Numbered from the stretch's first letter, positions 9,790-59,074 are shown. The stretch: DNA of 64,000 nucleotides from Gammaproteobacteria bacterium (GCA_022820625.1 JAJEFE010000077.1:20768-84767); one strand, 5' to 3'. The notes: generated from the sequence alone by a model not told the origin. Made by a program: numbers and translations.

Positions 9790-9800
9790 TTGTACTACTA
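9790..9800. promoter_or_regulatory. candidate GntR/FadR-type operator TTGTACTACTA
   Basis: Near-palindrome in the divergent MFS/P450 intergenic region. It shares the 8-mer TGTACTAC with the sites at 29717, 46269 and 59064. Confidence 0.45.
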
Positions 9801-9853
9801 TAGTTCGTCCATGCGAGCGGGTTGGTCAAGACTGCGCATCATGAACCGCAATT

Positions 9854-9864
9854 TTGTTGTACAA
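9854..9864. promoter_or_regulatory. candidate GntR/FadR-type operator TTGTTGTACAA
   Basis: TTGT-N3-ACAA, 27 nt upstream of the P450 ATG. The 10-mer TTGTTGTACA is identical to the site at 46332. Confidence 0.4.
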
Positions 9865-9890
9865 AGACGAATGACATCGGGATTACCGGC

Positions 9891-11198
9891 ATGACGGTTC
9901 AGGTAGCGCAGGACCTGCCGACGCTCTCGGAGTTGGCTGATGAGCGATTCGCGCGGGATCCGGGGTTTGCCTACCGGGCCGCCCATGCGCAGCCGGGACC
10001 CGGCCTGTTCCAAATGCCCACCGGCGACGGGCTGATCGCCACGGCCCATCGGACGCTCGCGGACCTGATGCACCATCCCGCCCTGGGCGCGCAGCACCGC
10101 CGGAAACGCCGCTCGGGCGCCGGAGCCAAGGGCGCCCTGGCCCGGATGGACAGCTACAGCCCCTTCTTCATGAACGAGCCCGCGCACACGCCCATCGCGA
10201 TCGCGACCTACCGGCCCATGAGCCCCGCGCGAAACCATCCGCTGATCGAGACGATCACACACGCCGCCGAAAAGGCCCTGGACGACATGCTAGACCGCGG
10301 CGGAGTGGTCGACCTGCGGCGGGACTATGTCCAGGTCATCGTCCGCAACTTCTGGGTCCGGTTCCTGGGACTGCCGGCGGAGGCGGCGCCGCTCCTGGAG
10401 AAATGTTCCGCCGACATATTGCCCATGTTGAAGTTCGAGAATACGCCCGGGGAGGTGGAGACCGCGAACCGCGCCGCGCAGACCATGCGGGATTACGTGG
10501 AGGTGCACCATGGGACGGTCGGGGACCCGCCGGGCGGAGATTCGCCGGGCGGAGAGTCGTCAGGCGGAGATTCAACCGGCGGAGAGTCGGCGGGCGGAGA
10601 TTCAACGGGCGAGACCTTTCTCGATCACTTCGAGTCCGTGCTTGCCGACGGCGACTGGAAGGACTTGCCAAGGAACGCCGCGACGACCGCAGCGGCGATC
10701 ACCTTCGACGGCATCGACTCCGCGGCAGGAGGCGCCGCCAACGTCATCTACACGTGCCTGAGCCACCCCGACCAATGGGCGCTGCTGGTGGAGAACCCGC
10801 GACTGGTCCATGACGCGTGGCGCGAGGCGATACGCCTTGAGCCGCCGTTTTTCGGCCTTCACCGCGGGGCATATAAGGACATCGATTACGATGGAGTTCG
10901 GATCGACGCCGGCACCAATCTTCTGATGGCGTGGGGAGCGGCCAACCGCGACCCCCGGGTCTTCGAGAATCCGCACGTTTTCGATATCCGGCGGCAGAAG
11001 CGGCGCACGCTGGGGTTCGGCGGCGGCCCGCGAATCTGCAAGGGTCGCCACCTGGCCATGCTGGAGGGCGAGATTGCGCTGCGCGTGCTGCTTGAGCGGC
11101 TCGCCTCCATCGAACTGCTGGTGGACGAGCCCGACTGGGGAGGTCCGGGCATGGTTCGCGCCATCCGGTCCATTCCGGCGCGCCTGAGCCCGAAGTGA
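9891..11198 (+). CDS. cytochrome P450
   Basis: Track ORF 9822..11198; ATG at 9891. Heme-thiolate loop FGGGPRICKGRHLA. EXXR (EAIRLEPP). Contains an internal (GG[DE]Sx) repeat insert. Confidence 0.9.
   Translation: MTVQVAQDLPTLSELADERFARDPGFAYRAAHAQPGPGLFQMPTGDGLIATAHRTLADLMHHPALGAQHRRKRRSGAGAKGALARMDSYSPFFMNEPAHTPIAIATYRPMSPARNHPLIETITHAAEKALDDMLDRGGVVDLRRDYVQVIVRNFWVRFLGLPAEAAPLLEKCSADILPMLKFENTPGEVETANRAAQTMRDYVEVHHGTVGDPPGGDSPGGESSGGDSTGGESAGGDSTGETFLDHFESVLADGDWKDLPRNAATTAAAITFDGIDSAAGGAANVIYTCLSHPDQWALLVENPRLVHDAWREAIRLEPPFFGLHRGAYKDIDYDGVRIDAGTNLLMAWGAANRDPRVFENPHVFDIRRQKRRTLGFGGGPRICKGRHLAMLEGEIALRVLLERLASIELLVDEPDWGGPGMVRAIRSIPARLSPK
10530..10613 (+). repeat. in-frame 15-bp tandem repeat (about 5.6 copies) inside the P450 gene
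   Basis: ccgggcggagattcg / ccgggcggagagtcg / tcaggcggagattca / accggcggagagtcg / gcgggcggagattca / acgggcgag, encoding PGGDSPGGESSGGDSTGGESAGGDSTGE. Confidence 0.9.
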
Positions 11199-12817
11199 CA
11201 ATCGGGGACGAATCGATGCACTTCCTTGAAGAGCCCACCGTGATCCGGAATCCCAATCCTCGCGTGCCGCTGGCCGCGGTGGTCTGTTTCCGCCCCAGCG
11301 AGCCCGGCCGAACGCGAATTGACATCCGCGATCCGGACCGCCAGTGGAGCGTGGAGTTCGGCCGCGACCGGTCGCCGGCCGAGGGGCTGCCCATTCTCGG
11401 CATGCGCCCCGACCGAGACCACGAACTTCGCGTGACGCTGATCGCCGAATCCGGCGCCGAAGTGACGGCGCCCGCACCGCTGCACTACCGTACGCCCCCC
11501 TTACCGGGTGGCTACGACTTTCCCCATGGCATCCGCATCAACCGGGACGACCGCAGCCGCCGCGAGCCGGGCGTCCTGCTGCTTTCCGTGCATCGCATAC
11601 CCAGGGGGCGGTACAACGAGTGGTCGCACGAGACAGTGGACTTCGGTTTCGGGTGGGGGATCATCGTCGCCCTGGACGCCGACAACGAAGTTTGCTGGTA
11701 CTACGAGACCGACAGCTTTCTGGAAGGCATCGACCGGCTCCGGAACGGCAATCTGATCTTCCACCGCTGGGATTTCCGCACCTTCGAGATCGACATGCTC
11801 GGCAATACCGCCAACCAGTGGTATGCGGCTCGCCGGCCCCAGGGCCCGGTCTCCGGGGCCATTGCCGTGGACACCGCCGGATTGCATCACCAGCCGAAAG
11901 AGATGCCCAACGGCAATTTCCTGATCTTCACCGCGTCATCCCGGGAAATCGACGACTACTACACGGACCAGTACAACCTGGAGGCGCCCCGGCGCAGGGC
12001 CATCGTGGTCGGCGACGGCGTGGCCGAGATGGACCGCAGCTCCGGCGAGCTGCTCTGGCGCTGGTCCGCGTTCGACCGCCTCGATCCGATGCGGATCGGC
12101 TATGGAGGTACGGACGACTACTGGGCCATGCGCGGCTTTGAAGGAGCGCTGGACTGGACCCACGGCAACGGCGCCGGCTATGACGCCCGGGACGACTCGG
12201 TAGTGGTTTCGCTACGGCACCAGGATGCCATCGTCAAGGTCGACCGAGCCAGCGGCAACATCAAGTGGATACTGGGCGAGCCGACCGGTTGGGGCGAACT
12301 CGGCGACAGGGTGCTGAAGCCCGTCAACCTGGCACGCTGGCCCTATCACGGACACAACCCTCGCCTCACCCCGGAAGGCACCATCGTGTTCTTCGACAAC
12401 GGAACCTGGGGCGCCCGCCCGCCGGAGCCGCCGGTCCCGCCCGAGAAGAATTTCAGCCGCGGCGTTGAGTACCGCGTCGACGAAGACGCCATGACCGTCG
12501 AGGAGGTCTGGGCGTCGGATACGCGCCATTCCCCAACATCCCGGCATTCCCCCGACATGGGTGACGCTCACAGGCTGCCCCAGACCGGCAACATGCTCGT
12601 GATCTGGGCGCACTGCGCGGCACCCGACACCGGACAGGTCTACAGCAACAGCGACACGAGCGGCACATTCTTCAACGAGTTCCACATGCCCTCCCTGCTG
12701 CGGGAATACGCCCGAAACGGCTCATCGGAGGTCGTATTCGAACTCGAACTGTACGATCCGGACGAAACCATCAATTGGGGCATCTACGGTGGGTTGATGA
12801 TTCCGACTCTCTATTAG
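11195..12817 (+). CDS. aryl-sulfate sulfotransferase (ASST)-like beta-propeller protein, no signal peptide
   Basis: The GTG at 11195 overlaps the P450 stop (GTGA); an alternative ATG lies at 11216. Motifs LHHQPKEMPNGN, DWTHGNG and HGHNPR are shared with the paralogs at 46455 and 59125. The N-terminus starts directly at the mature-domain position of those paralogs. Confidence 0.8.
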   Translation: MTIGDESMHFLEEPTVIRNPNPRVPLAAVVCFRPSEPGRTRIDIRDPDRQWSVEFGRDRSPAEGLPILGMRPDRDHELRVTLIAESGAEVTAPAPLHYRTPPLPGGYDFPHGIRINRDDRSRREPGVLLLSVHRIPRGRYNEWSHETVDFGFGWGIIVALDADNEVCWYYETDSFLEGIDRLRNGNLIFHRWDFRTFEIDMLGNTANQWYAARRPQGPVSGAIAVDTAGLHHQPKEMPNGNFLIFTASSREIDDYYTDQYNLEAPRRRAIVVGDGVAEMDRSSGELLWRWSAFDRLDPMRIGYGGTDDYWAMRGFEGALDWTHGNGAGYDARDDSVVVSLRHQDAIVKVDRASGNIKWILGEPTGWGELGDRVLKPVNLARWPYHGHNPRLTPEGTIVFFDNGTWGARPPEPPVPPEKNFSRGVEYRVDEDAMTVEEVWASDTRHSPTSRHSPDMGDAHRLPQTGNMLVIWAHCAAPDTGQVYSNSDTSGTFFNEFHMPSLLREYARNGSSEVVFELELYDPDETINWGIYGGLMIPTLY

Positions 12818-12829
12818 TGGAGGTTTGCA

Positions 12830-14716
12830 ATGAACATCGCCAATAGTCAGATAAAGCGCCATTCCTTCGCAGCTGTATTGGTTGCAGTGCTCGGCGTGAT
12901 TTGCACGTTCCCGCTGACAGTCCGTGCGCAGGGCAACAATATTGCAGGTCTGGAAGCAGGGACAGCCTCAACGGAACCACCCGACTACGATGCGTACGAG
13001 TGGTCCCTTCCCCGCGTTCCTGTGCTGGAGGCGCTGGACCGGGACGGGGACGGGCAGTTGGATGCCCTTGAAATAGCGGCCGCTCAGGAGTCACTCATGC
13101 CTCTTGACGCCAACGGTGACCAGTTGCTGGACAGGCGTGAACTTGGCGGCCCGGGCCCGATCCCGGGCTGGCTTCGCCTGCAAACGCCCATCAAGGTCAT
13201 CGACAAGGACGGTGACGATCAAATTGACTTTGAGGAACTGGAACAAGCCACCGCTGCGCTTCGCCGCGCCGATCTGGACGGCGACTGGGTACTGAGCAAT
13301 GCGGAACTGTACGATCGACGTGCCGTGCCCCCATCTCCGGAGGGCCTGGCGAACGTCAGGCAATTGGTCGCGATGCTGGGTCGATCGGATGTAGTCTATC
13401 CGATACTGCCCGGCGAGGACCCCCGCCAGTATGAGGCCTACATGCTCTACACGGAGTCAGGATCCGCCGGCGATACCACCATTAACGCCGGAACCAAGCT
13501 GCTGGACCCGCAGGGCAACCTGGTTCATGAATGGCCATCCGAACATGGGCCGGAAGGCGTCCATTCTCATCTCCTCCCGGATGGCAATCTCCTTCGGCAA
13601 GCGGGCATTGGGGACTTCTTCGATATGCGATCCTTTCCGGTCGCGGCCCACGGAGTCCTGGAAATCGTGGCGCCGAACGGTGAGGTTCTTTGGGAGTTCA
13701 GTCACTGTATCGAGAACAACATGTGCCTGCATCATGACTTCGCTCCCATGCCAAACGGCAACGTTCTCGTAACGGAGTACAACGCGGTACCCAGAGTGGA
13801 ACTCGAATTCCACGGTCGTACGCCGCGACGGAATGAAAGGGACGTACGCTGGTTCGAACGAATTCTGGAATTGAAACCGAACCTGGAGGATGGTTCGACC
13901 GAGATCGTGTGGATGTGGTCAGATCTTGATCATATGGTCCAGGACCAATTCCCGAACCGGCCAAACTATGGCGACATACGAGAGAACCACGATCGATTCG
14001 ACATCAACTTTCCCGGTAATGCACAGAGGCACTTCCACGCGAATGGCATCGATTACGAGCCTGAGCGGGACTTGATCGTATTCAGCAGTGTCAATCACAA
14101 CGAAATCTATATCATCGACCACAGCACCACGACAGCGGAGGCAAGAACAGGCCAGGGCGGGCGTTGCGGAAAGGGCGGGAGGATACTCTTCCGATTCGGC
14201 AACCGGGCCGTGTATGGCTACGGCGACGCTGAAAGTCAGATTCTTGGCGCTCAGCATGATCCGCACTTCATAAAGGCCGACAATCTCCCCGGGCCCGGCG
14301 ACCTGACCATTCATAACAATCGGGCTGGAACCATTCCCGGGGCTGAAGCCATTGGCGCATTTGGTCTCGGTATGTCGTATTCGTCCATCGTCGAAATTGC
14401 ATTGCCGTACGACGATAACGGCTGCTTCGAACTCGCGGAGAATGGCGACCCGTACCAGACGGAAATCGTCTGGGAGTACATCGAGGAACCGCTCGGCGCC
14501 TGGCACGGCCCATTTGCCGGAGCGGCCACCCGCGTTCCAAACGGTAATACCGTCGTCATGAATTCACAGACCAAGAGAGTGTTCGAGGTCACCCCGCAAG
14601 GTGAGCGAGTTCTGGACTTTCAATTGCCCGAAACCGGTCGACCGCAAAAGCTGCAAAAGCTCAGTCTCGATTATCCGGGACTGGTGTCGTTGCTGGAAAG
14701 CCTTGAGGCGGAGTGA
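12830..14716 (+). CDS. secreted EF-hand (x4) + arylsulfotransferase-like beta-propeller fusion protein
   Basis: GGAGG RBS lies 7 nt upstream. Signal peptide AAVLVAVLGVICTFPLTVRAQ. EF-hand loops DRDGDGQLDALE, DANGDQLLDRRE, DKDGDDQIDFEE and DLDGDWVLSNAE. The C-terminal part shares HHDF, HANGIDY, PNGNT.V and FEVTP.G with 21594..23189. Confidence 0.75.
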   Translation: MNIANSQIKRHSFAAVLVAVLGVICTFPLTVRAQGNNIAGLEAGTASTEPPDYDAYEWSLPRVPVLEALDRDGDGQLDALEIAAAQESLMPLDANGDQLLDRRELGGPGPIPGWLRLQTPIKVIDKDGDDQIDFEELEQATAALRRADLDGDWVLSNAELYDRRAVPPSPEGLANVRQLVAMLGRSDVVYPILPGEDPRQYEAYMLYTESGSAGDTTINAGTKLLDPQGNLVHEWPSEHGPEGVHSHLLPDGNLLRQAGIGDFFDMRSFPVAAHGVLEIVAPNGEVLWEFSHCIENNMCLHHDFAPMPNGNVLVTEYNAVPRVELEFHGRTPRRNERDVRWFERILELKPNLEDGSTEIVWMWSDLDHMVQDQFPNRPNYGDIRENHDRFDINFPGNAQRHFHANGIDYEPERDLIVFSSVNHNEIYIIDHSTTTAEARTGQGGRCGKGGRILFRFGNRAVYGYGDAESQILGAQHDPHFIKADNLPGPGDLTIHNNRAGTIPGAEAIGAFGLGMSYSSIVEIALPYDDNGCFELAENGDPYQTEIVWEYIEEPLGAWHGPFAGAATRVPNGNTVVMNSQTKRVFEVTPQGERVLDFQLPETGRPQKLQKLSLDYPGLVSLLESLEAE

Positions 14717-18630: not shown

Positions 18631-18642
18631 GTGTCTACAACT

Positions 18643-27645: not shown

Positions 27646-27653
27646 GGGACTGC

Positions 27654-29620: not shown

Positions 29621-29716
29621 GAATTGTCGTCCGTCGTCGCTTCGGAGTTACTTCTGCGCTGAAATGTTCTACTCTATGGTGGGTTCAAGGCTAAAATAAC
29701 CGATCAAACGGCGAAT

Positions 29717-29727
29717 TTGTACTACCA
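29717..29727. promoter_or_regulatory. candidate GntR/FadR-type operator TTGTACTACCA
   Basis: Lies in the divergent intergenic region between the hydrolase-E1 operon and the amidohydrolase operon. A weaker ATGTTCTACTC lies at 29664..29674. Confidence 0.45.
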
Positions 29728-31070: not shown

Positions 31071-31081
31071 GAACGAAGCGC

Positions 31082-31996: not shown

Positions 31997-32085
31997 CGTG
32001 CATGTCTCGGCTGTGTTCGTTGGACGAGCGCAGATCATCCTAATGCTGATCGGCGCGCTAACCTCCATTTGAGAAAGGAACTCGC

Positions 32086-32748: not shown

Positions 32749-32750
32749 CG

Positions 32751-34385: not shown

Positions 34386-34405
34386 CCGGGCAGGGCCATT
34401 CGGGA

Positions 34406-46268: not shown

Positions 46269-46279
46269 TTGTACTACAA
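46269..46279. promoter_or_regulatory. candidate GntR/FadR-type operator, perfect palindrome TTGTACTACAA
   Basis: TTGTA-C-TACAA, 83 nt upstream of the TBDR ATG, in an AT-rich stretch. Confidence 0.5.
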
Positions 46280-46331: not shown

Positions 46332-46342
46332 TTGTTGTACAG
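46332..46342. promoter_or_regulatory. candidate GntR/FadR-type operator TTGTTGTACAG
   Basis: Second site in the same promoter region. It shares TTGTTGTACA with 9854..9864. Confidence 0.4.
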
Positions 46343-48167: not shown

Positions 48168-48200
48168 CGATTGAACTCCTGGTCAGTTCGAAGAGAATTG

Positions 48201-49214
48201 TCAGTAAATGATCGACAGTTTCCCGATCATGCTGCGCGCCTCCAGCTTTGCATGCGCCTGGCGCAGCGTCGCGGCGGAAAGCCCGTGCAGGGTCCTGGTG
48301 AGGGTGCTGCGGATCTCGCCGGCCTCGACCCTGTCGGCAAGCTGCTCGAGAATCCGGTGCTGGCGCCGCATTGTATCGGTTGCGAAGATGGGCCGCGTCG
48401 ACATGTGCTCCCACGCAAACGTCACGCTCTTGAGCATGAGCTTGCGAAGATCCACCGGCCGTTCGGAGCCGACGATGCAGGCGATCTTGCCTTCCGGCGC
48501 AATCAGCTCGGCCATTGCGTCCCAGTGTTCGGCCGTGTCGGCGCAGTTCAGGATGTAGTCGACGTGCTCGAATCCCGCTTCCCGCACGGAGTCCACGAGG
48601 GAGTGGTGATTGGCGACCCGGTCCGCGCCCATCTCCAGGCACCAGTCACGGCTGGCAGGCCGCGATGCCGAGGCGATCACCTTCATCCCGGCCAGGCGTT
48701 TGGCCAGTTGAATCGCGATGGAACCAACGCCTCCGGCCCCGCCAATGATGAGTAAGGTGTGCGAAGTGCCCGGTGACTGCGAAATTCCGAGCCGTTCGAA
48801 GAGCGCTTCCCACGCGGTAATCGCCGTGAGCGGGAGCGCGGCGGCTTCCGCCGGTTCCAGGTTCTTCGGGCGGCGGCCCACGATGCGTTCGTCCATGACC
48901 TGGTACTCGGCATTGCTTCCCGAACGGTCGATGCTGCCGGCGTACCAGACCTTGTCGCCAGGGCCGAAAAGATGTGCTTCCGGGCCTGCCTCAGTAACGG
49001 TCCCGGCAGCGTCAAAGCCCAGAATCAGGGGTCGTTCGAGCGGCTCTTCGGTGGCGGCTCGGCGCCGCCGCAACGTGTCCACGGGATTGACCGACACGGC
49101 CTCGACCCTGATCAGGAGTTCGCGGGGACCCGGCACGGGAACCGGCGTCTCGTAGTCCATGAGGCAACGTTGATCCTCCACGGGCAGGGAGCGTGTAAAG
49201 GCCACGGCTCTCAT
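48201..49214 (-). CDS. zinc-binding alcohol dehydrogenase family / quinone-oxidoreductase-like MDR protein
   Basis: 337 aa. Motifs ...LIRVEAVSVNPVD... and IIGGAGGVGSIAIQLAK. Confidence 0.85.
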   Translation of the reverse strand: MRAVAFTRSLPVEDQRCLMDYETPVPVPGPRELLIRVEAVSVNPVDTLRRRRAATEEPLERPLILGFDAAGTVTEAGPEAHLFGPGDKVWYAGSIDRSGSNAEYQVMDERIVGRRPKNLEPAEAAALPLTAITAWEALFERLGISQSPGTSHTLLIIGGAGGVGSIAIQLAKRLAGMKVIASASRPASRDWCLEMGADRVANHHSLVDSVREAGFEHVDYILNCADTAEHWDAMAELIAPEGKIACIVGSERPVDLRKLMLKSVTFAWEHMSTRPIFATDTMRRQHRILEQLADRVEAGEIRSTLTRTLHGLSAATLRQAHAKLEARSMIGKLSIIY

Positions 49215-49480
49215 CGCACCCGATTTCCTTCCGACAGCAGTTGGTCAGCGTATATTGTCGCACGGAAACATCGGGCAAACGCTCCAAAAGTTGAACAGAC
49301 TGCAATCGGGGCCTTAGCTGCCATATGGGAAAACAATTAATTTTCAGTAAGTTAGAAAAACGCGTCTTCAGGGACGATTGAACACACGAAACAAATGTAC
49401 AACAATACGGAGTCCGGCAAAAGATTGGCCGAAAAAAGATTCGGTGCGTTCGCCGAACCATTCGGCAAGGGATCCCACGG

Positions 49481-50590
49481 ATGGCATATTTCGCAACCGC
49501 AGCGATCGTTCGCGAACCTGGCGGACAATTCTCGCTGGAGCGGGTGGAACTCGATGCCCTGCGCGAATACGAAGTTCTTGTTCGTATCGAAGCATGCGGG
49601 ATCTGTCATACCGATGCGAAGTTCCAGAGCCGCGTTCCATTGCCCGGCGTCTTCGGGCACGAAGGCGCGGGCGTCGTGGAGGAAACCGGTGGTGCCGTCA
49701 CTTCCGTGCGTGCGGGCGACCGGGTCATCATTTCCTATCCCTGGTGCGGGGCCTGCCCATACTGCGAACGGGCGGAACCGTTCAAGTGCGAGAACATCCC
49801 GGCGCTCAAGTTTGCCGGGCAACGCAGTGACGGCAGCCGCACCGTGCGGCTGAATGGGGAGGCTGTGAGCAGCGCTTTTTTCCAGCAGTCTTCATTTGCG
49901 ACGCGCGCCATTGCGCTCGAGCACGCACTTGTTCCCGCGGCCAACAGTATGGCCCCGGAAATGCTGGCCGCGCTGCCTTGCGGGGTACAGACGGGTGCCG
50001 GTGCGGTGATGAATACCTTCGCAATGGGTCCCGAGGACAGTCTGGTGGTGTTCGGGGTCGGTACGGTGGGCCTTAGCGCGATCATGGCAGCCCGGGTAGC
50101 GGGCGTTTCCACAAGAATTGCCGTGGACATCAACCTCTCGCGGCTGGCTCGTGCCAGGGACCTCGGCGCGACTCATGCTCTTGACGCCAGCGAGGACGAT
50201 GTGCCGCGCCGTGTGTGGGAATGGCTGCCTCGCGGGGCCAGTCATGCCCTGGAAAGTTCGATCACGGCATCGGCCCTTGACGATGCGGTGCGGTGCCTCG
50301 GCCAGGGCGGCAAGGTCGGAATATTCAGCGGACCACCGCCGGGCGAAGAGTTCCGTTTCTCCACCCGCGAACTGTTCCAGCGGGTCGGGAGCTTGCACGG
50401 CATCATCCAGGGGTCGGCGGTACCGGGCGAATTCCTGCCGTGGCTCATGGAATTGCAGCGTGCCGGCCGGTTTCCCTACGAGCGGCTGATCAGCACTTAC
50501 GACTTCGCGGACATCAATCGCGCATTCGCGGATCTTGAAGATGGTATCGCGATCAAGCCTGTCCTGGTGTTTCCGCAGGAACAACCATGA
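49481..50590 (+). CDS. NAD-dependent aryl/benzyl-alcohol-dehydrogenase-like Zn-ADH
   Basis: 369 aa. Motifs EACGICHTD, GHEGAGVVEE, structural-Zn CGACPYC and VFGVGTVGLSA. Confidence 0.85.
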   Translation: MAYFATAAIVREPGGQFSLERVELDALREYEVLVRIEACGICHTDAKFQSRVPLPGVFGHEGAGVVEETGGAVTSVRAGDRVIISYPWCGACPYCERAEPFKCENIPALKFAGQRSDGSRTVRLNGEAVSSAFFQQSSFATRAIALEHALVPAANSMAPEMLAALPCGVQTGAGAVMNTFAMGPEDSLVVFGVGTVGLSAIMAARVAGVSTRIAVDINLSRLARARDLGATHALDASEDDVPRRVWEWLPRGASHALESSITASALDDAVRCLGQGGKVGIFSGPPPGEEFRFSTRELFQRVGSLHGIIQGSAVPGEFLPWLMELQRAGRFPYERLISTYDFADINRAFADLEDGIAIKPVLVFPQEQP

Positions 50591-51363
50591 GCCGCTTCCG
50601 GAACAAGGCCGCGATCGTGACCGGGGCGGCATCGGGGATCGGCCTGGCGACCGCGGAACGACTCGCGGCGGAAGGGGCCAGTGTGCTGCTGACGGATCTG
50701 AGCGAACAGGCTGGATCCGAGGCGGCGTGTCGGCTCGGGGCCACGGCCAGGTTCAGGGCGCACGATGCCGCCTCCGAGTCGGATTGGGAGTCCGTGGTTG
50801 CCGACTGCGTGAATGAATTCGGGCGTCTGGACGTGCTCGTCAACAACGCAGGCGTCGCCTTTCTTGCCGGTCAGCTTCCGCCGGAGGATTTGACGCTGGA
50901 GGAATGGAACCGGGTCAATGCGGTCAATGCCGCAGGCGTGATGCTGGGCTGCAAACATGCGATCCGGACCATGAAGGCCACCGGCGGCGGCGCCATCGTC
51001 AATATCGCCTCGGTGGCCGCGACGGTGGCTTCTCCGCTGGCGGTACCGTACGGCGCCAGCAAGGCTGCCGTCGTGCAACTGACCAAGACTGTGGCGTTCG
51101 ATTGTGCGCGGCGCGGCTACGAAATCCGCTGCAATGCGGTCCTGCCCGGGACGATCGAAACCACCCTCTACAAGACCTTCAGCGAAGAACAACGCGCCGC
51201 CAATGCCAGGAGCGTGCCCGTTGGCCGCCTGGGTACGCCCGAAGACGTGGCAATGGCGGTGGCATTTCTGGCAAGCGACGACGCCCGCTACATTACGGGC
51301 GCCCAGCTTGCGGTGGATGGCGGGTTATCCGCCGTAAATCCCATGCGGGCGGACGACGGGTAG
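50587..51363 (+). CDS. SDR-family oxidoreductase
   Basis: 258 aa. Motifs TGAASGIGLA, NNAG and YGASKAA. Overlaps the ADH stop by 4 nt. Confidence 0.9.
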   Translation: MSRFRNKAAIVTGAASGIGLATAERLAAEGASVLLTDLSEQAGSEAACRLGATARFRAHDAASESDWESVVADCVNEFGRLDVLVNNAGVAFLAGQLPPEDLTLEEWNRVNAVNAAGVMLGCKHAIRTMKATGGGAIVNIASVAATVASPLAVPYGASKAAVVQLTKTVAFDCARRGYEIRCNAVLPGTIETTLYKTFSEEQRAANARSVPVGRLGTPEDVAMAVAFLASDDARYITGAQLAVDGGLSAVNPMRADDG

Positions 51364-51387
51364 CAGACTGAACCAACGGAGGACATC

Positions 51388-52830
51388 GTGACATTGGAAG
51401 GTCGTCACTGGATCGGCGGGGAGTGGGTCGGATCGGCCGGGGGCGCCGAGGCCGAGAGCGAGAACCCGAGTACCGGGGAACGGCTTGGCCGGTTCGCCGA
51501 CGCCGGGCTCGCCGACGCCGACGCCGCAATCGGCATCGCGCGCGAGACGTTCGAGACGTCTTCGTGGGCACACCAGCCCCGGGTGCGAGCCCAGGTGTTG
51601 CTGCAGTTCGCCGATCGCCTGGAAAGTCGAAAGGCCGATATCGCCCGGGCGCTGGCACGGGAAAACGGCAAGCTCATCGGCGAAGCCACGCACGAGGTAG
51701 CCGCGGGCATCTCGGAGCTACGCTACTACGCCGGGCTCGCGCGGAACATCTTCGGCCGCGTCACCGAGGTGGACCACCATCAGTATTCCATGCTGGCCCG
51801 GGAACCCATGGGCGTTGCCGGCATCATCGTGCCCTGGAACGCGCCGATCACGTTGCTGATCCGGTCGCTGGCCCCTTGCATGGCGGCAGGATGCACGGCG
51901 GTGGTCAAGGCCGCGCCGCAAACCGCCCTGGTGAACGCCGAAGTTTTCGCGATGCTGGCGGACATCGACGGACTGCCCCCAGGCGTCGTCAACATGCTGG
52001 CGGAGACGGGCAGCGACGTGGCCAGGCGGCTCGTGACCTCGCCGGAAGTAGACGTGATCTCCTATACCGGCAGCACGGAAGTAGGCAAGCGGATCATGGC
52101 GGCCGGCGCCGATACGCTCAAACGCATGAACCTGGAACTGGGCGGCAGCGCGCCCTGTGTCGTCTTTGCCGATGCCGACCTGGATGCGGCTGCCGCGGGC
52201 ATCGCCCGCACGGGAATGGCCCACGCGGGCCAGGTCTGTGTGGCCGCAAGTCGCGTGCTTGCGGAGGAGTCCGTCGCAGGGGCGCTGCAGGCGCGCCTGG
52301 CGGAGCGGCTCGGCGCCTTGCGTCTCGGCGTCGCCGACGACCCCCGCAGCGGCCTCGGGCCGCTCATCGACCGGGCCAGTCAGGCGCGTATGGAACGATT
52401 GGTGGACGAGGCACGAGGTCTTGGCGAGATGATTCTCACCGGCAGTGCTCCCGTCGGAGCGCTTTCCTCCGGATGCTTCATCGGTCCCAGCCTGGTACGA
52501 GTGGAAGACTCCGGCCACGCACTCCTGGACCAGGAAATCTTCGGTCCGCTCCTTACCGTGGATACCTTTGCAGACGAGGAGGAGGCGGTGGCGCAAGCCA
52601 ACGACACTCGCTTCGGCCTGGCCGCCAGCGTGTGGACGACTGACCAGCAGCGCGGCCTGCGCCTGGCGTCCCGGATCAAGAGCGGTACGGTCTGGATCAA
52701 CGCCCACATGAAGCTGCACGCTGAAATCGAGACCGGAGGCTACCGCGAGAGCGGAATCGGACGCTTGCACGGCGTGGAGGGGCTGGATGAATTCCTCCAG
52801 ACCAAGCACATTTCCTGGCAGACGGCGTAA
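51388..52830 (+). CDS. NAD(P)-dependent aldehyde dehydrogenase
   Basis: GTG at 51388 after ACGGAGGA. 480 aa. Motifs LELGGSAP and EEIFGP-like QEIFGP; catalytic Cys region HAGQVCVAASR. Confidence 0.9.
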   Translation: MTLEGRHWIGGEWVGSAGGAEAESENPSTGERLGRFADAGLADADAAIGIARETFETSSWAHQPRVRAQVLLQFADRLESRKADIARALARENGKLIGEATHEVAAGISELRYYAGLARNIFGRVTEVDHHQYSMLAREPMGVAGIIVPWNAPITLLIRSLAPCMAAGCTAVVKAAPQTALVNAEVFAMLADIDGLPPGVVNMLAETGSDVARRLVTSPEVDVISYTGSTEVGKRIMAAGADTLKRMNLELGGSAPCVVFADADLDAAAAGIARTGMAHAGQVCVAASRVLAEESVAGALQARLAERLGALRLGVADDPRSGLGPLIDRASQARMERLVDEARGLGEMILTGSAPVGALSSGCFIGPSLVRVEDSGHALLDQEIFGPLLTVDTFADEEEAVAQANDTRFGLAASVWTTDQQRGLRLASRIKSGTVWINAHMKLHAEIETGGYRESGIGRLHGVEGLDEFLQTKHISWQTA

Positions 52831-52958
52831 CTGCCGGGCATCCACCGTCACGGCGCCGGGGCTTGCACGGAACTGAAAGATGTTGAAACTCCACCATCAC
52901 GGTTCTTCCGTCTGCGCCGCCGCCGAAATCGAATCTTCACATCGCTGAATGCAGGAAG

Positions 52959-53933
52959 ATGACGACGCGAAGCCAGTCCATGAGACGTGAGGAGTACATC
53001 GATCTCTACCGGACCATGGTCCGGATCCGCGTTTTCGAGGAGACCGTGCGCCGCTACCATATCGCCGGCAAGGCGCCCGGCCTGGTACACCTGTGCACGG
53101 GGCAGGAGGCAGTGCCAGCCGGTTTCATTTCCGTGCTCAGGCCGGACGACTTCATCACCATCTACCATCGCGGCCACGGTCATTGCATCGCCAAGGGATC
53201 TTCGCTGGAGGCGCTTCTGGGCGAGCTGTTGCATCGCCGGGGTGGGGTGAACCTGGGGCGGGCGGGCGAACCGCACCTGTGCGATCCTGCCACCAACAAC
53301 ATCGGTTCCACCGGAATTGTCGGCGGCAGCGTGCCCCTGGCAGCCGGGGCGGCGCTGGCTGCCCAGCTTCGCGGCACTGACCAGGTGTCGGTGAGCTTCT
53401 TCGGTGACGGCGTGCTCAACCAGGGCGTGATGTTCGAGGTGCTGAACATGGCGGCCATCTGGTCCCTGCCGGTGGTCTTCGTCTGCGAGGACAACCGCTA
53501 CGGCGAGTTCACCGAAAGCGCGACGGTGACGGCAGGGGAACGCTACCAGGATCGCGGCGCCGTCTTCGGAATTCCCTCGGATACCCTGGACGGAATGGAT
53601 GTGCTGGCGGTTTGCGAGGCCGCCGAGTCGGCGGTGGGCCGGGCACGGCGCGGCGAGGGACCGAGTTTTCTGGTATTCGAAACCTACCGGTTCACCGGCC
53701 ATCACGTGAGCGACCAGCAGGAATACAAGGACAGCGAGGAGATTCGCGCCTGGAAAGCACGCGACCCGATCCCGAACTACGCCCGCTGGCTTGCGGAGAA
53801 AGGCCACATGGATGACGCGGCCATCGCCCGCATACACTCCGAAATCGACGACGAAGTGGAGGCGGCCGCCAAGGTCGCCGATTCGATGCCTCACCCCGGA
53901 CCCGAGGATCTCGGGACACATGTGTTTGCCTAG
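52959..53933 (+). CDS. TPP-dependent 2-oxoacid/acetoin dehydrogenase E1 alpha subunit (pair 1)
   Basis: 324 aa. Motifs YHRGHGHCIAKG and FFGDGVLNQG...FVCEDNRYG. Confidence 0.9.
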   Translation: MTTRSQSMRREEYIDLYRTMVRIRVFEETVRRYHIAGKAPGLVHLCTGQEAVPAGFISVLRPDDFITIYHRGHGHCIAKGSSLEALLGELLHRRGGVNLGRAGEPHLCDPATNNIGSTGIVGGSVPLAAGAALAAQLRGTDQVSVSFFGDGVLNQGVMFEVLNMAAIWSLPVVFVCEDNRYGEFTESATVTAGERYQDRGAVFGIPSDTLDGMDVLAVCEAAESAVGRARRGEGPSFLVFETYRFTGHHVSDQQEYKDSEEIRAWKARDPIPNYARWLAEKGHMDDAAIARIHSEIDDEVEAAAKVADSMPHPGPEDLGTHVFA

Positions 53934-53956
53934 GCGGCAGCCCATGCCCGTGCGCC

Positions 53957-54943
53957 ATGCAGCAGACTGAGCGGCAGATCAGCCTGAAAGCGGCGGTCAT
54001 CGAGGCCATCGCCGAGGAATTCAGGCGCGACCCCGAGACGTTCTACATCGGCGAGGACGTGGGCGTGGCCGAGGGCATCTTCAAGCAGACCCAGGGATTG
54101 CACGCAGAATTCGGCGACAGGCGCGTGATCGATACGCCCATTTCGGAAGCCGGAATGTTCGGCCTGACGGTGGGGGCTGCGGTCGCCGGCATGCGGCCCA
54201 TCGTGGAGATCATGTTCAGCGATTTCCTGACGCTGGTGATGGATCAACTGGTCAACCACGCCGCCAAGATTCATTACCTTTCAGGCGGGGGGTTCAGGGT
54301 ACCGCTGGTGCTGCGGACCGCCATCGGCGTGGGAGGCGTTCTTGGCTCCACCCACTCGCAGACTCTGTACGCCTGGCCGGCGCATGTCCCCGGCCTCAAG
54401 CTCGCGGCCCCGTCCACGCCTGCGGACGCCAAGGGCCTGATGACGGCGGCAATCCGCGACGATAACCCGGTCCTGTACTTTGAGGACCGCATGACCTACA
54501 ACCTCAAGGGGCCGGTGCCGGAGGGCGAGCACATTGTCGAACTGGGTGTGGCCGACATCAAGCGCAAGGGCAGCGACGTGACGCTGATCGCGTTTTCCCG
54601 CATGGTGCACGTGGCGCTGGAGGCGGCGGACGCGCTTGCCGCGAAGGGCATCAGCGCGGAGGTGGTGGATCCGCGATCCATCGTCCCTCTGGATACCGAA
54701 ACGCTGATTGATTCGGTGGCCAGGACCGGCCGCGCCGTGGTGATCGACGGCGGACACGAGCTCTACGGTATCGGCGCCGAGGTTGCCGCGACCGTTGCCG
54801 AGGGCGCCTTCGACTACCTCGATGCACCGGTGATGCGGATCGGCGCACCCCACAACCCGGTACCGTGCAGCAAGCCGCTGGAAGCGATGATGGTGCCGAG
54901 TGCCGATCAGGTCGTGGCGAAGGTCGAACGGATGTACGGATGA
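53957..54943 (+). CDS. E1 beta subunit (pair 1)
   Basis: 328 aa. Motifs FYIGEDVG and RVIDTPISEAGMFGLTVGAA. Confidence 0.9.
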   Translation: MQQTERQISLKAAVIEAIAEEFRRDPETFYIGEDVGVAEGIFKQTQGLHAEFGDRRVIDTPISEAGMFGLTVGAAVAGMRPIVEIMFSDFLTLVMDQLVNHAAKIHYLSGGGFRVPLVLRTAIGVGGVLGSTHSQTLYAWPAHVPGLKLAAPSTPADAKGLMTAAIRDDNPVLYFEDRMTYNLKGPVPEGEHIVELGVADIKRKGSDVTLIAFSRMVHVALEAADALAAKGISAEVVDPRSIVPLDTETLIDSVARTGRAVVIDGGHELYGIGAEVAATVAEGAFDYLDAPVMRIGAPHNPVPCSKPLEAMMVPSADQVVAKVERMYG

Positions 54944-55020
54944 GAACGAATGCGTGAAACGACTCGAGGCGGACAGGCGCGCAGGCGGACATATGCCGGC
55001 CGCTACGGAACCATTGACCA

Positions 55021-56037
55021 ATGATTGACAGCGTACAGGCACTGGCCATTTTCGAATCGATGCTGCTGATCCGCCGCTTTGAAGAGACGGTAATCGATCT
55101 CTGGGCGACCGTGGAAACCGAAAGCCACCGCCACGTCTACATCGGCCAGGAGGCGGTGGGCGCGACAATCATGGAACTGCTGCGCGAAGACGACCTGATC
55201 CTGACCACCCACCGCAACCATGGCCACGTGCTCGCCCGAGGCGCCGATCCCGGCCGCGCACTGGCCGAGATCCTCGGTCGGGCGAACGGCTTCAACAAGG
55301 GGCGCGGCGGCAGCGCCGGGCTGACGGTTCGCGAGGCGGGATTCCTGGCCACCACGGGCCAGGTGGGCGGCGGCATCGGTCTGGGCATCGGCGCCGCGCA
55401 GGCCCAGAAGATCAGGGGCAGGGGCGGGATCTGCGTGACCTTCTTCGGCGACGGCGGGCTGGAAGAAGGGATCGGCTTCGAGGCCATGAACATCGCCGCG
55501 CTGTATCGCCTGCCGGTGCTGCTGGTATGCGAGAACAACAGCGTCGGAGTCACCACGGGCCGCGCCCAGAACGAATGGTCGTCGTCCTCCATGGCGGCCG
55601 AGACCCTGGGGGACATCCCCCGAGCGCTGGGAATCGCCACGGAAGTGGTTGCCGGGGAAAGCGTGACCGACGTCCACGAGGCAGCGAGCCGGCTGATCGG
55701 CGATCTGCGCGAGGGCAGGGCGCCCGCCTTCATCGAGATGCGTACCCGGCGCTGGCCCGGGTCCCGCAGCTTCAACCCGCAACTGGTGACCGGTGTGACC
55801 AATCTCGACGATATCTGGGAGCCTGTTTCGGTGACTGGCGAATATTCCGACTGGATCAATCGGTACGATCCGGTCATCGGCTATGGCAGAGATCTGTTCC
55901 GTCAAGGCCGGGTGAGTCGCAGCGAGATCGTCGCCATGAACGAGCGAGTCGGCCGAACCGTAGAGGCGGCCCGTGAGTTTGCGCTCGCCAGTCCGCTGCC
56001 GTCGGCCGAAAGCGGACTCGCGGGTACGTTCGCATGA
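55021..56037 (+). CDS. TPP-dependent E1 alpha subunit (pair 2)
   Basis: 338 aa. Motifs THRNHGHVLARG and FFGDGGLEEG...LVCENNSVG. Confidence 0.85.
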   Translation: MIDSVQALAIFESMLLIRRFEETVIDLWATVETESHRHVYIGQEAVGATIMELLREDDLILTTHRNHGHVLARGADPGRALAEILGRANGFNKGRGGSAGLTVREAGFLATTGQVGGGIGLGIGAAQAQKIRGRGGICVTFFGDGGLEEGIGFEAMNIAALYRLPVLLVCENNSVGVTTGRAQNEWSSSSMAAETLGDIPRALGIATEVVAGESVTDVHEAASRLIGDLREGRAPAFIEMRTRRWPGSRSFNPQLVTGVTNLDDIWEPVSVTGEYSDWINRYDPVIGYGRDLFRQGRVSRSEIVAMNERVGRTVEAAREFALASPLPSAESGLAGTFA

Positions 56038-56056
56038 TGGCCGGGGGAGATTCGCG

Positions 56057-57034
56057 ATGGCGAGGATGACGTTTGCCGCGGCCATGGTGGACGCCGTCGT
56101 GGCGCGGATGCACGACGATCCGACCATGACGCTGATCGGCAGCGCTTACCTGCTGGGACCTACGGCAGAGCATCCGGAGTTGAACGCGGTACGGGAGCGC
56201 TACGCGGATCGGATCATCGACGAACCGCCCATCGCGGAGTCCGCCGTAGCGGGGCTTGCCATCGGTTCGGCCATGAGCGGTTGCCGCGCGCTGGCACACT
56301 TCGGTCTTGCGGCATTCGCCGTCGAGGCCTGGTCACAGTTCATTCACGAGGCGGGCGTGGCGCATCATCAGTCCGGCGGACAGATCACCGTCCCCGCCGT
56401 CTTCGTCATGATGCACGGCATCATGCCCATCGAGCACTCCCAGCACAGCCGCAGTCCCTACGCCATGCTGGCCAACTGTCCGGGGATCCAGATCGTGCTG
56501 GCGTCCACACCCGCCGATATCAAGGGCCTGATGACGACCGCGCTGAGAAGCGATAATCCCACTGTGGTCATGAACCACCCGTTACTGATGGCAATGGAAG
56601 GCGAAGTCCCGGACGGTGATTTCTCCATCCCGTTCGGCCAGGCGGAGGTCAGGCGGGCGGGCGACGATGTCACCATAGTGGCTACGTCGCACAAGGTGCA
56701 CGTAGCGCTGGAGGCGGCCGAGAGGCTGGCTGCCGATGGCGTTTCTGCCGAGGTCGTCGACCCGCGCACCATCGTGCCCCTGGACCGCGCTGCCATCCTG
56801 GCGTCGGTATGCAAGACCGGCCGTGTGGTGGTGGTGGACGACAGCCCTCGCACGTGCGGATTCGGCGCCGAGATCGGGGCGTTGGTCGCGGAGTCCGCCT
56901 TCGACGATCTCAAGGCGGCGGTCGTGCGGCTGTCGCCTCCGGACACCCCCATACCGAGAGGTACCGTCGCCCAGACGCCGTTCCGGACAACGCCGGAGAA
57001 GGTGGTGGGCGCCGTGCGCTCCGTTCTTTGGTGA
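56057..57034 (+). CDS. E1 beta subunit (pair 2)
   Basis: ATG at 56057 after GGGGGAGA; the track ORF starts at 55973. Motif RIIDEPPIAESAVAGLAIGSA. Confidence 0.85.
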   Translation: MARMTFAAAMVDAVVARMHDDPTMTLIGSAYLLGPTAEHPELNAVRERYADRIIDEPPIAESAVAGLAIGSAMSGCRALAHFGLAAFAVEAWSQFIHEAGVAHHQSGGQITVPAVFVMMHGIMPIEHSQHSRSPYAMLANCPGIQIVLASTPADIKGLMTTALRSDNPTVVMNHPLLMAMEGEVPDGDFSIPFGQAEVRRAGDDVTIVATSHKVHVALEAAERLAADGVSAEVVDPRTIVPLDRAAILASVCKTGRVVVVDDSPRTCGFGAEIGALVAESAFDDLKAAVVRLSPPDTPIPRGTVAQTPFRTTPEKVVGAVRSVLW

Positions 57035-57091
57035 GAGGCCCGCAATTGGATACCCTCCGTGAGATATTCGCAATGAGAGGTCCGCAATTCC

Positions 57092-58423
57092 ATGACCCGT
57101 GAAATCCTGATGCCGGCGCTGACGCCAACCATGGAGGAGGGAACACTGGCCCGCTGGCACGTGCGTCCCGGCGACTCGGTTGAGGCGGGCCAGGTGATCG
57201 CCGAGATCGAGACGGACAAGTCCGTGCTGGAACTGGAGGCGTTGGAGGATGGCGAGATCGGCGAGTTGATGGTGGAGGAGGGCGCCGAGGGCGTGCCCGT
57301 GGACCGGGTCATCGCCACCTTACTGGAGGCACACGAGTCATCTGACTCCGAGGAGGCCGACCCGGCACCGCCCGCCGAACTCGCAGACGAAGCCGTTGCA
57401 TCCGGCATCGGGCGCCCCGAGTCCGGTTCGTCGTCGAAACCGCGGTCGCAGGGGGCGGCGTCGACGCCCGTCATACCATCGTCGGGAGGGCGGCGGAACC
57501 GCGTACCCGCGAGTCCGGCGGCCCGGCGTCTTGCACGCGAGCGCGGCATCGATATTGCCGCGCTGATGGGCACAGGCCCGCGCGGCCGGATCGTCGCCGC
57601 CGATGTCGAAGCTGCATTGCCGGCGCTGTCTTCCGACGACGGATCGACGGCAGTTGCTGCCACCGGAACGCCGCCGGCCGAGTTGGAAATACCGTTTGAA
57701 GAAAGGCCGCTCTCCACCCTGGGCAAGACCATGGCACGGCGGATGGCCGAGTCCAAGGCGACCATTCCCCACTTTCATTGCAGTATCGACGTCTGTGTTG
57801 ATGCTGCATTGAGCCTGCGGGCTGAACTCAACGCATCCGGGGATGGTCCCAAATTGTCACTGAACGACCTGGTGGTGCACGCCGTGGCCCGGGCTCTGCA
57901 GGATACGCCCCGGATGAATGTCCAATACCGGGATGACCGCCTGATCCGGTTCCGGCGCGTGGATATCGCGGTTGCCGTCGCCCTGGACGAGGGTCTGGTG
58001 ACGCCGGTGTTGCGTGGTGCGGAGACATTGCCGCTGCCCAAACTGGCCTCGCGGATGCGGGACCTGAACGAGCGGGCGCGTGCAAGACAACTGGACGTCG
58101 AAGACTACCGGGGCGGTACTTTCACCGTATCCAACGTAGGAATGTTTGGCATCCGCCAGAGCTGGCCGATCATCAATCCGCCGCATGCGGGCACACTCGG
58201 CGTCGGCGCGGCCGTGCCCCGGCCGGTGGCGATCGCCGGCGACGATGGCACGCGTGTCGACGTTGCTACCATGATGAGCCTGACCCTGGCCGCCGATCAC
58301 CGCGCCGTGGACGGTGTGATTTCCGGCCAGTTTCTCCGCCGCCTGAAGGAAGCGCTCGAGCATCCCGAAGCGCTACCCGACTCGGGGGAACGTGCTCAAT
58401 CGCCGAACACGAGCGACGGGTAG
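57092..58423 (+). CDS. dihydrolipoamide acyltransferase (E2)
   Basis: 443 aa. Lipoyl domain (AEIETDKSV), Ala/Pro/Ser linker, E3/E1-binding domain (ASPAARRLARERGIDI) and catalytic domain with DHRAVDG. Confidence 0.9.
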   Translation: MTREILMPALTPTMEEGTLARWHVRPGDSVEAGQVIAEIETDKSVLELEALEDGEIGELMVEEGAEGVPVDRVIATLLEAHESSDSEEADPAPPAELADEAVASGIGRPESGSSSKPRSQGAASTPVIPSSGGRRNRVPASPAARRLARERGIDIAALMGTGPRGRIVAADVEAALPALSSDDGSTAVAATGTPPAELEIPFEERPLSTLGKTMARRMAESKATIPHFHCSIDVCVDAALSLRAELNASGDGPKLSLNDLVVHAVARALQDTPRMNVQYRDDRLIRFRRVDIAVAVALDEGLVTPVLRGAETLPLPKLASRMRDLNERARARQLDVEDYRGGTFTVSNVGMFGIRQSWPIINPPHAGTLGVGAAVPRPVAIAGDDGTRVDVATMMSLTLAADHRAVDGVISGQFLRRLKEALEHPEALPDSGERAQSPNTSDG

Positions 58424-58941
58424 CCTTTCTCCGCGACCAGTGCGGCCGCCTTGCGCATGGGATCGCGGGTGTGGTGGCGGCCGGCGCCATGACCCTCCAC
58501 GAGGCGGTTGACCATATTGAAATGCGCGCAGACGCAGATGGCGTCCGACAGCGCCTTTTCGCTCCAGCCGGCCGCGAACACGGCATCGGCGTCCTCCTGG
58601 GTCATGGCCGAGGGTGTGTACGTGAGTTTCTCCACGTAGCGCAACAGGGCCTTGAAACTCTCCTCAACAGGTGCGGTGTCCAGGTTCGCCAACGCCTGGT
58701 CGATCAGTGAATCGTCTGCTCCGGATGCTGCCGCGACCGCGGCATGCCCATGGAATCAGTGCGGGCAGTCGTTCAGGCCGGACACGTACGAGCCGATGAA
58801 CTCCCGCTGCGCCGGAGTCAGCTCGGATGGATCGCGCAGGATGCGCTGGGACTGCTTCGGAAGCCCCCGCAACCGGTCGGCGCGGGCGCGAACGATGTCG
58901 GGCTGGCCGGCGTCTTCATGCAGGAATTTTACGAATGGCAT
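58396..58941 (-). CDS. candidate selenoprotein: AhpD/carboxymuconolactone-decarboxylase-family peroxidase-related protein (C-P-H-U); in-frame TGA at 58756..58758
   Basis: Track ORFs 58756..58941 and 58396..58692 are in the same frame (58941-58692=249). Read-through gives ...FIGSYVSGLNDCPH-[TGA]-FHGHAAVAAA..., the AhpD-type CxxC with the second Cys replaced by TGA. The combined length of 181 aa is typical of the family. Confidence 0.7.
58730..58743 (-). promoter_or_regulatory. candidate bacterial SECIS hairpin downstream of TGA 58756..58758
   Basis: On the minus strand the sequence is UGA + 12 nt + GCCGC-GGUC-GCGGC: a 5-bp GC stem with a GGUC apical loop. The loop and spacing resemble the E. 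coli fdhF SECIS as I remember it. Confidence 0.45.
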
Positions 58942-59063
58942 CGCTCGGAACTCCTCTTGGTTGAACAGTATGTAACGAGACTCTTGAGATCAACGCTAAA
59001 AGTACATTACTTTCAATATGTTAGGTATAAGCCCTCAAACAGGCAGTTGTGATCTCATCAAAA

Positions 59064-59074
59064 CTGTACTACAT
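59064..59074. promoter_or_regulatory. candidate GntR/FadR-type operator CTGTACTACAT
   Basis: The core TGTACTACA is a perfect palindrome. It lies 51 nt upstream of the ASST ATG at 59125. Confidence 0.45.

Follow-up and report, generated by a model that had tools for sequence, protein, structure and literature searches.

A probable FadR-type operator palindrome recurs across arylsulfotransferase, sulfatase and transporter operons of a gammaproteobacterial locus and accompanies orthologs of its GntR/FCD regulator

Operators of the FadR subfamily of GntR regulators are described by a common consensus, an AT-rich palindrome whose TKGT and ACMA boxes place GT and AC 3 nt apart (PMC4494728). In the FadR-subfamily regulons (Suvorova, Korostelev, Gelfand 2015, PMC4494728; RegPrecise), such sites occupy divergent intergenic regions and are often doubled, and the regulators are often autoregulated. 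The string 'sulfat' does not occur in the main text of that study. In Escherichia coli, two operators of DgoR have been defined experimentally, IR1 (TTGTAGTACAA) and IR2 (TTGTACTACAT), and the protein represses D-galactonate catabolism from sites that overlap the promoter (PMC11705089). Another GntR/FCD repressor, Atu1419 of Agrobacterium fabrum, acts in hydroxycinnamate degradation; it contacts DNA as a tetramer and offers a precedent for cooperative binding at sites set apart from each other (PMC11705089). Here we describe a palindrome of this kind in a 64,000-nt stretch of DNA from a Gammaproteobacteria bacterium (GCA_022820625.1, JAJEFE010000077.1:20768-84767), referred to as the window. 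The palindrome is found in five intergenic regions beside genes for arylsulfate sulfotransferases (ASSTs), a cytochrome P450, a TonB-dependent receptor (TBDR), transporters and dehydrogenases. The candidate cognate regulator is the 220-aa product of 32086..32748 (+), a FadR-subfamily protein with a GntR winged helix-turn-helix (wHTH) and an FCD domain.

The putative operators of the window closely follow these known systems. Its sites have the TKGT-N3-ACMA form of the FadR subfamily, as in TTGT-ACT-ACAA, TTGT-TGT-ACAA and ATGT-ACA-ACAA, in agreement with the GntR/FadR-type pattern originally predicted. As in the published regulons, they are AT-rich palindromes in divergent intergenic regions, often doubled. 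Read directly in the dgo promoter of strain MG1655 (NC_000913), IR1 is identical to the reverse complement of the window site at 46269. IR2 matches sites in an ortholog locus described below (L014) and differs by one base from the window site at 59064. DgoR and the window regulator share the same architecture and the S-R...R-E residues of the recognition helix, both systems have more than one palindrome per promoter, and some taxa carry the regulator gene within the operon under its control, as is the case for DgoR. In contrast, the two proteins are only 26% identical and are not orthologs, and no dgo genes are present in the window or the ortholog loci. The targets are ASST, sulfatase, TBDR, P450 and aromatic oxidation genes as opposed to dgoKADT. 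The predicted regulon spans five promoters in the window compared with one for DgoR, and its site pairs are 52-53, 63-65 or about 106 bp apart, whereas the DgoR repeats are about 28 bp apart centre to centre. Given the low identity and the absence of dgo genes, the window regulator appears to work like DgoR without being DgoR. It is an FCD-type GntR protein like Atu1419, which controls aromatic-acid catabolism and to which its sequence relation is distant. The PDB chain 6z74, which matches the window regulator (E=7e-11), is presumably Atu1419. The proposed mechanism, a FadR-type repressor on a DgoR-like palindrome, is already textbook, but the ASST/sulfatase/TBDR aromatic gene content, shared across marine Gammaproteobacteria and enlarged in a sponge symbiont, is undescribed.

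Recurrence of the motif in the window is far above expectation. The gene map was built from GC3-biased open reading frames and Pfam matches. The 8-mer TGTACTAC occurs at 9791, 29718, 46270 and 59065, in every case on the + strand and between genes. The four regions of the original prediction were thus confirmed in all coordinates and strings, and there are five promoter regions in all. Only 0.17 occurrences were expected, and none of 100 dinucleotide-preserving shuffles reached four. The strict form TGTWSWACA was observed 6 times against 0.38 expected, and six of the eight TGT-N3-ACA matches fall inside the 11% of the window that is non-coding. Good sites consist of TTGT, 3 nt and ACAA with a W-S-W centre (ACT, AGT, TGT, ACA, TCT). 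The consensus, wTGT-WSW-ACAw, is an AT-flanked palindrome with the ideal form TTGTA-S-TACAA. Sites have either orientation relative to the genes and come in pairs.

The motif also follows the regulator into distant taxa. A search of 5.8 billion proteins identified orthologs (P0001-P0060) with 46-91% identity, followed by a gap to at most 42%. Seven distant ortholog loci were analysed: L009 (Acidibacter metagenome-assembled genome, MAG), L014 (Pseudomonadales MAG), and L012, L013 and L015-L017 (metagenomes), with regulator identities of 48-63% and a GC content of 47-61%. Another four ortholog loci (L121-L124) were retrieved only once the hypothesis had been fixed and served as a hold-out. The strict motif was observed 27 times in the distant loci (1.7 expected) and 20 times in the hold-out (1.8 expected). 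Matrix hits of at least 9 bits in the seven loci numbered 44 in 11.7 kb of intergenic DNA and 17 in 121.6 kb of coding DNA; the hold-out hits were 20 intergenic and 8 coding, the coding DNA being about 10 times longer. Across all 11 loci, which belong to other marine Gammaproteobacteria, there are 47 strict motifs against about 4 expected, an 11-fold enrichment, and the motif is about 20-27 times denser between genes than within genes. The scoring matrix was trained on distant ortholog loci only, as a count matrix of 27 distant sites, in which positions +/-5 to +/-8 are about 70-87% A/T. Applied to the window, this matrix placed its six best positions (49400, 59069, 9859, 46274, 29722, 9795) between genes without exception.

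No comparable enrichment was found in the controls. The strict motif was flat in loci of non-orthologous GntR genes (1 observed, 0.33 expected) and at expectation in ASST loci of taxa without the ortholog (1 observed, 1.0 expected). It was not enriched in 80 FCD-GntR paralog loci (652 kb; 26 observed, 18.8 expected). The paralogs, 29-38% identical, came from a metagenome scan with the ortholog alignment, in which there were no orthologs among the matches listed. The motif thus travels with orthologs of the 32086..32748 gene across distant taxa and not with paralogs or ASST genes alone. It is real, intergenic and conserved, is inherited together with the regulator orthologs, and has the very sequence of a proven FadR-family operator. 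The original prediction that one regulator links these scattered operons is supported by the sequence comparisons: the motif is not equally frequent in coding or other intergenic DNA, in the window or in the ortholog loci, its sites are conserved in orthologous promoters, and the claim survived each computational refutation test proposed with it.

Site placement and gene content are shared among the ortholog loci. In the distant loci, sites precede TBDRs, major facilitator superfamily (MFS) genes, ASST operons and divergent alcohol/aldehyde dehydrogenase (ADH/ALDH) gene pairs. TBDRs have upstream sites in most ortholog loci that include a TBDR, and a site lies upstream of the regulator-containing operon in L014, L015, L016, L121 and the window. 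Several sites in the distant loci are 100-250 nt upstream of start codons. In all seven distant loci the regulator is surrounded by gene families that also occur in the window: sulfatase, ASST, TBDR, MFS, Zn-ADH, ALDH and short-chain dehydrogenase/reductase (SDR) genes, doubled E1 alpha/beta genes with E2, a class-III aminotransferase, abhydrolase_3 and DUF3604. A fused MFS/spermine-synthase-like protein of about 1050 aa occurs there too. The ADH-SDR-ALDH-E1-E2 gene set also adjoins the regulator in L012, L013 and L124. Nearly every ortholog locus encodes, next to the TBDR, a protein of about 1000-1100 aa that contains a spermine-synthase-like domain, in most cases joined to an MFS domain (L012 4233-7385, L013 1646-4804, L014 2550-5747, L015 18256-, L016 18461-, L017 4304-7291, L121 2417-5638, L122 1-2291, L008 4910-8227). 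This protein is absent from the window.

The regulator is of the FadR type by Pfam, as originally proposed. Its N-terminal GntR wHTH (PF00392, E=1.1e-18) covers residues 8-66, and its C-terminal, all-helical FCD effector/oligomerisation domain (PF07729, E=8.5e-22) covers residues 76-197; no NCBIfam equivalog cut-off was reached. No other regulator gene was found in the window, including by Pfam searches of the remaining open reading frames. The wHTH is strongly conserved across the ortholog set, which is consistent with the conserved motif. His129, His174 and His196 of the FCD domain are conserved in the orthologs as well. Conserved histidines of FCD domains are likely metal or effector ligands. 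A second GntR/FCD gene is present in ortholog locus L123 (12279-12935), directly downstream of a sulfatase, and may encode a paralogous co-regulator.

Individual sites are conserved in the closest relatives, which are MAGs labelled Candidatus Rariloculaceae or unclassified Gammaproteobacteria/Proteobacteria; we take the SB0676 bins to be of marine sponge origin. The divergent region between the MFS (-) and P450 (+) genes has two sites 64 bp apart: S1a at 9790..9800 (TTGTACTACTA, 14.8 bits) and S1b at 9854..9864 (TTGTTGTACAA, 19.8 bits), 27 nt upstream of the P450 ATG at 9891. S1b is intergenic because the P450 gene starts at this ATG (MTVQVAQD), a start conserved in relatives. S1a is inside a conserved block in L018-L020, and L023 reads TTGTACAACTA there. 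The S1b block ATTTTGTTGTACAAAGACGAAT is conserved in relatives, and the DNA between S1a and S1b is variable. S2 at 29717..29727 (TTGTACTACCA, 16.6 bits) lies 20 nt upstream of the amidohydrolase GTG at 29748, in a region divergent from the abhydrolase-E1 operon. L004, L005, L006 and L008 keep it, and the more distant L007 has TGTACAACA in this intergenic region instead. At 53 bp from S2, the match at 29664..29674 (ATGTTCTACTC), previously listed as weaker, is of moderate strength (13.7 bits) and is intergenic.

Upstream of the TBDR, S3a at 46269..46279 (TTGTACTACAA, 19.3 bits) is a perfect palindrome 83 nt from the TBDR ATG at 46186 (-), the distance first given for it. In the 92%-identical relative L002, S3a is a conserved island, ATTTTGTAGTACA, in a largely diverged TBDR promoter. 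S3b at 46332..46342 (TTGTTGTACAG, 12.2 bits), 63 bp from S3a, reads TTGTTCTACAG in L002; its arms are kept and its centre is altered, giving the island CTGTA[C/G]AACAA. The 10-mer TTGTTGTACA, named earlier as the mark of second sites at 9854 and 46332, is present as written and common to both. The site at 49395..49405 (ATGTACAACAA) lies in the divergent region between quinone-oxidoreductase-like dehydrogenase (QOR)-ASST (-) and ADH-SDR-ALDH-E1-E2 (+). It had been classed among the weaker matches, but with 23.5 bits it is in fact the top matrix hit in the window, and it is conserved in L001 (7837) and L002 (2800). The match at 49254..49264 and the half-site at 63463..63475, both listed originally, are not supported, as they fall outside the top 30 of the independent matrix. 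A weak candidate at 49288..49298 (AAGTTGAACAG, 9.9 bits) is 107 bp from the 49400 site.

S4 at 59064..59074 (CTGTACTACAT, 21.2 bits) is 51 nt upstream of the ASST ATG at 59125, again as first noted. L024 and L030 have the same sequence, and L025 and L026 have ATGTACAACAA in the same place with otherwise diverged flanks. A weak candidate 106 bp upstream of S4, at 58958..58968 (TGGTTGAACAG, 10.5 bits), has a counterpart nearer the consensus at the same position in L025 (TGGTTGTACAG). Across relatives the TTGT/ACAA arms are fixed and the centre varies (ACT, ACA, TGT, TCT), the pattern predicted for a dimeric reader of half-sites. A motif-like match, TGGTGTTCAACAACA, also occurs at 60410-60424 (60417; 14.7 bits) within the coding region of the fifth ASST. 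It is kept in L025 and L026, a conservation indistinguishable from protein-coding constraint.

The position of the sites bears on how they may act. Start codons follow the sites at 20-90 nt in the five intergenic regions. S1a overlaps a sigma-70-like promoter candidate of the P450-ASST-ASST operon (9776..9804, +; TTCACT-17-TATAGT, a candidate by consensus match only, at 9 of 12 positions), being located in the spacer and at the -10 edge. The other four site-bearing regions have no consensus sigma-70 promoter match. The short distances and the one promoter overlap point to occlusion as the likeliest mode. On the model of DgoR and FadR, each palindrome would be occupied by a dimer, one wHTH per TTGT/ACAA arm, that represses through promoter occlusion and is released once its FCD domain takes up a small-molecule effector. 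The majority of promoters have two or three sites. Their centre-to-centre spacings cluster at 52-53, 63-65, 73-77, 85-87 and 104-107 bp and are phased at 10.5 bp in the discovery set (n=30, Rayleigh R=0.65). Such helix-phased spacing suggests that dimers on the same face cooperate, which could occur via a loop or a dimer of dimers; the helical phasing is statistical evidence only. A fixed spacing of 63-65 bp was rejected as a universal rule, as the hold-out loci show 52-55, 73-78 and 85 bp.

A trivial origin of the recurrence, as a by-product of AT-rich promoters, chance, a duplicated promoter or a mobile repeat, is very improbable. Intergenic regions are indeed AT-richer (45-55% GC versus 63%), and the ASST genes are paralogous, so that their promoters could have been duplicated alongside. 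However, by block-local shuffles of the window, which keep the local composition, 0.38 hits of at least 14 bits are expected and 7 were observed, and about 20 other intergenic regions of the window are without the motif. Sites persist as islands amid diverged flanks, with arms kept and centre altered, and the same motif is enriched in unrelated taxa of 47-64% GC. BLAST among the five site-bearing regions found at most 15 bp in common, at the motif itself only, which rules out a repeat element or a duplicated promoter. A sigma-70 -10/-35 element and an alternative-sigma promoter were also rejected as explanations, since the motif is palindromic, paired and found in either orientation, and the one region with a sigma-70 match has the motif in the spacer. 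The identity of the binding protein is a separate matter. DgoR, at 26% identity, binds exactly the IR1 and IR2 sequences, and thus the motif alone does not identify the protein. The sites could be FadR-type operators of another GntR/FCD regulator, for example a DgoR-like paralog, whose gene is located outside the window, in which case the local regulator would control something else. The second GntR/FCD gene of L123 and the lack of a site directly before the local regulator gene agree with such a binder. We nevertheless consider it unlikely: the enrichment is tied to orthologs of the local regulator in 11 distant loci and is not seen around 80 paralogous FCD-GntR genes, the strongly conserved wHTH of the orthologs matches the conserved motif, and a site precedes the ortholog-containing operon in several taxa.

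The direction of control can be questioned as well. FadR is an activator at fabA, and the local GntR/FCD protein could be an activator or a dual regulator, with the upstream member of a phased pair as the activating site. The sites found 100-250 nt from start codons fit this, as do the four of five window regions in which no promoter-like match overlaps a site. Many sites, however, are at 20-90 nt, S1a overlaps the -10/spacer candidate, and DgoR, the closest characterised case with the same operator, represses from sites overlapping the promoter; we give an activating or dual role a small chance of being correct. Several observations weigh against assigning the sites to repression by the local protein. 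Because the loci were retrieved via the regulator, its presence beside the sites is in part a product of the search; controls with paralogs and with ASST genes alone lessen this bias and do not remove it. Many FadR-subfamily proteins recognise near-identical TTGT-N3-ACAA sequences, and the local assignment is one of co-occurrence only. Phasing in the hold-out by itself is not significant (n=8, R=0.54, p about 0.1). The combined set (n=38) gives R=0.63, which none of 20000 random distance sets reached, and its promoters are partly orthologous and so not independent. With a sigma-70-like promoter in one of five regions, occlusion is deduced from position alone. The 89-bp gap directly before the regulator gene has no operator site. 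Finally, same-family neighbours lack a site, namely the ASST at 21594, the TBDR at 35939, DUF3604 and the amidohydrolase/DUF6152 pair at 63229-63500. On balance, it is very probable that the sites are operators of some FadR-type regulator, and there is good reason to regard the local protein as the binder. The combined statement, operators of a FadR-subfamily factor that is most probably the 32086..32748 product, is likely to hold. For repression by the local regulator, which draws on the analogy with DgoR, our confidence is moderate.

One regulator would then switch several transcription units together; operon boundaries and co-transcription are predictions from the gene map throughout. The first unit is the MFS transporter (8533..9732, -), divergent from S1a and S1b, with the predicted operon of P450, ASST and a second ASST with EF-hand matches (9891..14716, +). 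At S2, a predicted operon of abhydrolase_3, E1 alpha and E1 beta (26674..29620, -) diverges from one of amidohydrolase, class-IV aminotransferase, GntR, sulfatase and MFS genes (29748..35725, +), the latter co-directional with short gaps. The TBDR (43922..46186, -) is a predicted member. Downstream of the 49400 site are predicted operons of QOR and ASST (46455..49214, -) and of Zn-ADH, SDR, ALDH, two E1 alpha/beta pairs and E2 (49481..58423, +). The fifth ASST (59125..60879, +), with S4 upstream, completes the set. The window thus holds five ASST (PF05935) paralogs in 64 kb (11195-12817, 12830-14716, 21594-23189, 46455-48167, 59125-60879), and four of them, all except that at 21594, stand behind predicted operator sites. 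The regulator gene is third in the co-directional string headed by the 29717 site, and the 89-bp gap before it showed no site resembling a terminator or a promoter, which makes autoregulation plausible. The earlier statement that no site lies upstream of the regulator therefore holds for the gap but not for the head of the gene string. The regulator is probably autoregulated, a view that depends on the predicted co-transcription and is weaker to that extent.

The gene content around the regulator points to an aromatic substrate. LigA/LigB, PrpF, RraA-like, Amidohydro_2 and GFO/MocA genes are found near the regulator in L016 (115-1351), L122 (12391-16306) and L124 (12994-18503), a set that we take to represent protocatechuate 4,5-cleavage. 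Genes of this type beside orthologs in three distant loci point to aromatic compounds, and FAD-dependent aromatic hydroxylases occur in L016, L017 and L122. Among the pathway enzymes, no specific NCBIfam equivalog cut-off was reached, and only generic subfamily models matched. We infer from gene content the class of substrate and effector; the most economical reading would be uptake and desulfation of sulfated phenolics, followed by side-chain oxidation and ring cleavage. Taken jointly, these loci could represent a conserved system for the utilisation of sulfated aromatics in marine and sponge-associated Gammaproteobacteria, with one loop-forming FCD-GntR repressor and a five-ASST host adaptation. 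We propose this tentatively and place it somewhat short of an even chance. Such a system would comprise TonB-dependent uptake, periplasmic ASSTs and sulfatases, MFS import, and alcohol, aldehyde and 2-oxoacid dehydrogenases feeding protocatechuate 4,5-cleavage. The repressor would respond to an aromatic acid or its sulfate ester, and the increase to five ASST paralogs would reflect adaptation of the sponge symbiont to sulfated phenolics from its host.

To our knowledge, the catabolic ASSTs of Gram-negative bacteria have no established physiological pathway or regulator. Full-text literature searches found no paper linking ASST genes to a GntR regulator, and nothing relevant was found in the literature on Rariloculaceae or on ASST in sponge symbionts. 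In the predicted regulon, genes scattered over 50 kb would form one unit: five ASST paralogs, a sulfatase, transporters, a P450 and dehydrogenase complexes. An ASST/sulfatase/TBDR unit with the same regulator and motif is also found in marine lineages unrelated to this one, and some of these loci have protocatechuate 4,5-cleavage genes alongside. Annotators gain a way to group these genes, and experimentalists gain a small testable system of one 220-aa protein, an 11-bp site and a few candidate effectors. It could help to identify the substrates of ASST-rich loci in unculturable sponge symbionts.

Other genes of the window lie among or near the predicted members. Two DUF6152 genes (23278-24333 and 63501-63920) and a DUF3604 gene (24362-26272) are interspersed with ASST and amidohydrolase genes; in L014 and L121 an operator site precedes DUF3604, which has none in the window. 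Downstream of the TBDR with the S3 sites are an acyl-CoA dehydrogenase (39035-40192, -) and a fused, IcmF-like mutase with B12-binding, MeaB and methylmalonyl-CoA-mutase domains (40240-43767, -). A site at or just upstream of the acyl-CoA dehydrogenase start in L014 and L121 suggests that the mutase and dehydrogenase may join the regulon.

Gene content appears to turn over quickly between close relatives, as seen in a comparison of window positions 48246-49246 and 57120-60960 with L001, which is without the QOR gene and without the segment of E2 and the fifth ASST. L002 has a 5.3-kb insertion (4664-10001) between the fourth ASST and the TBDR that brings an extra TBDR and a RES-domain gene, and the extra TBDR has a site pair of its own upstream (4735/4798). 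Insertions following E1 alpha, each bordered by an operator site, are present in L008 and in L007; the one in L008 (2369-8415) encodes a TBDR and the MFS/spermine-synthase-like protein. New cargo seems to arrive with an operator or to acquire one. Towards the edge of the window, 1088-3343 (-) encodes a 751-aa fusion of pyridine-nucleotide-disulfide oxidoreductase and AIR-synthase-related (SelD-like) domains that is unconnected with the regulon. Exact-protein look-ups of the genes at the ends of the window gave no recorded match. A YhgA-like transposase (PF04754) is located at 14840-15850 (-) and is followed by 1.35 kb without a recognisable gene (15851-17199).

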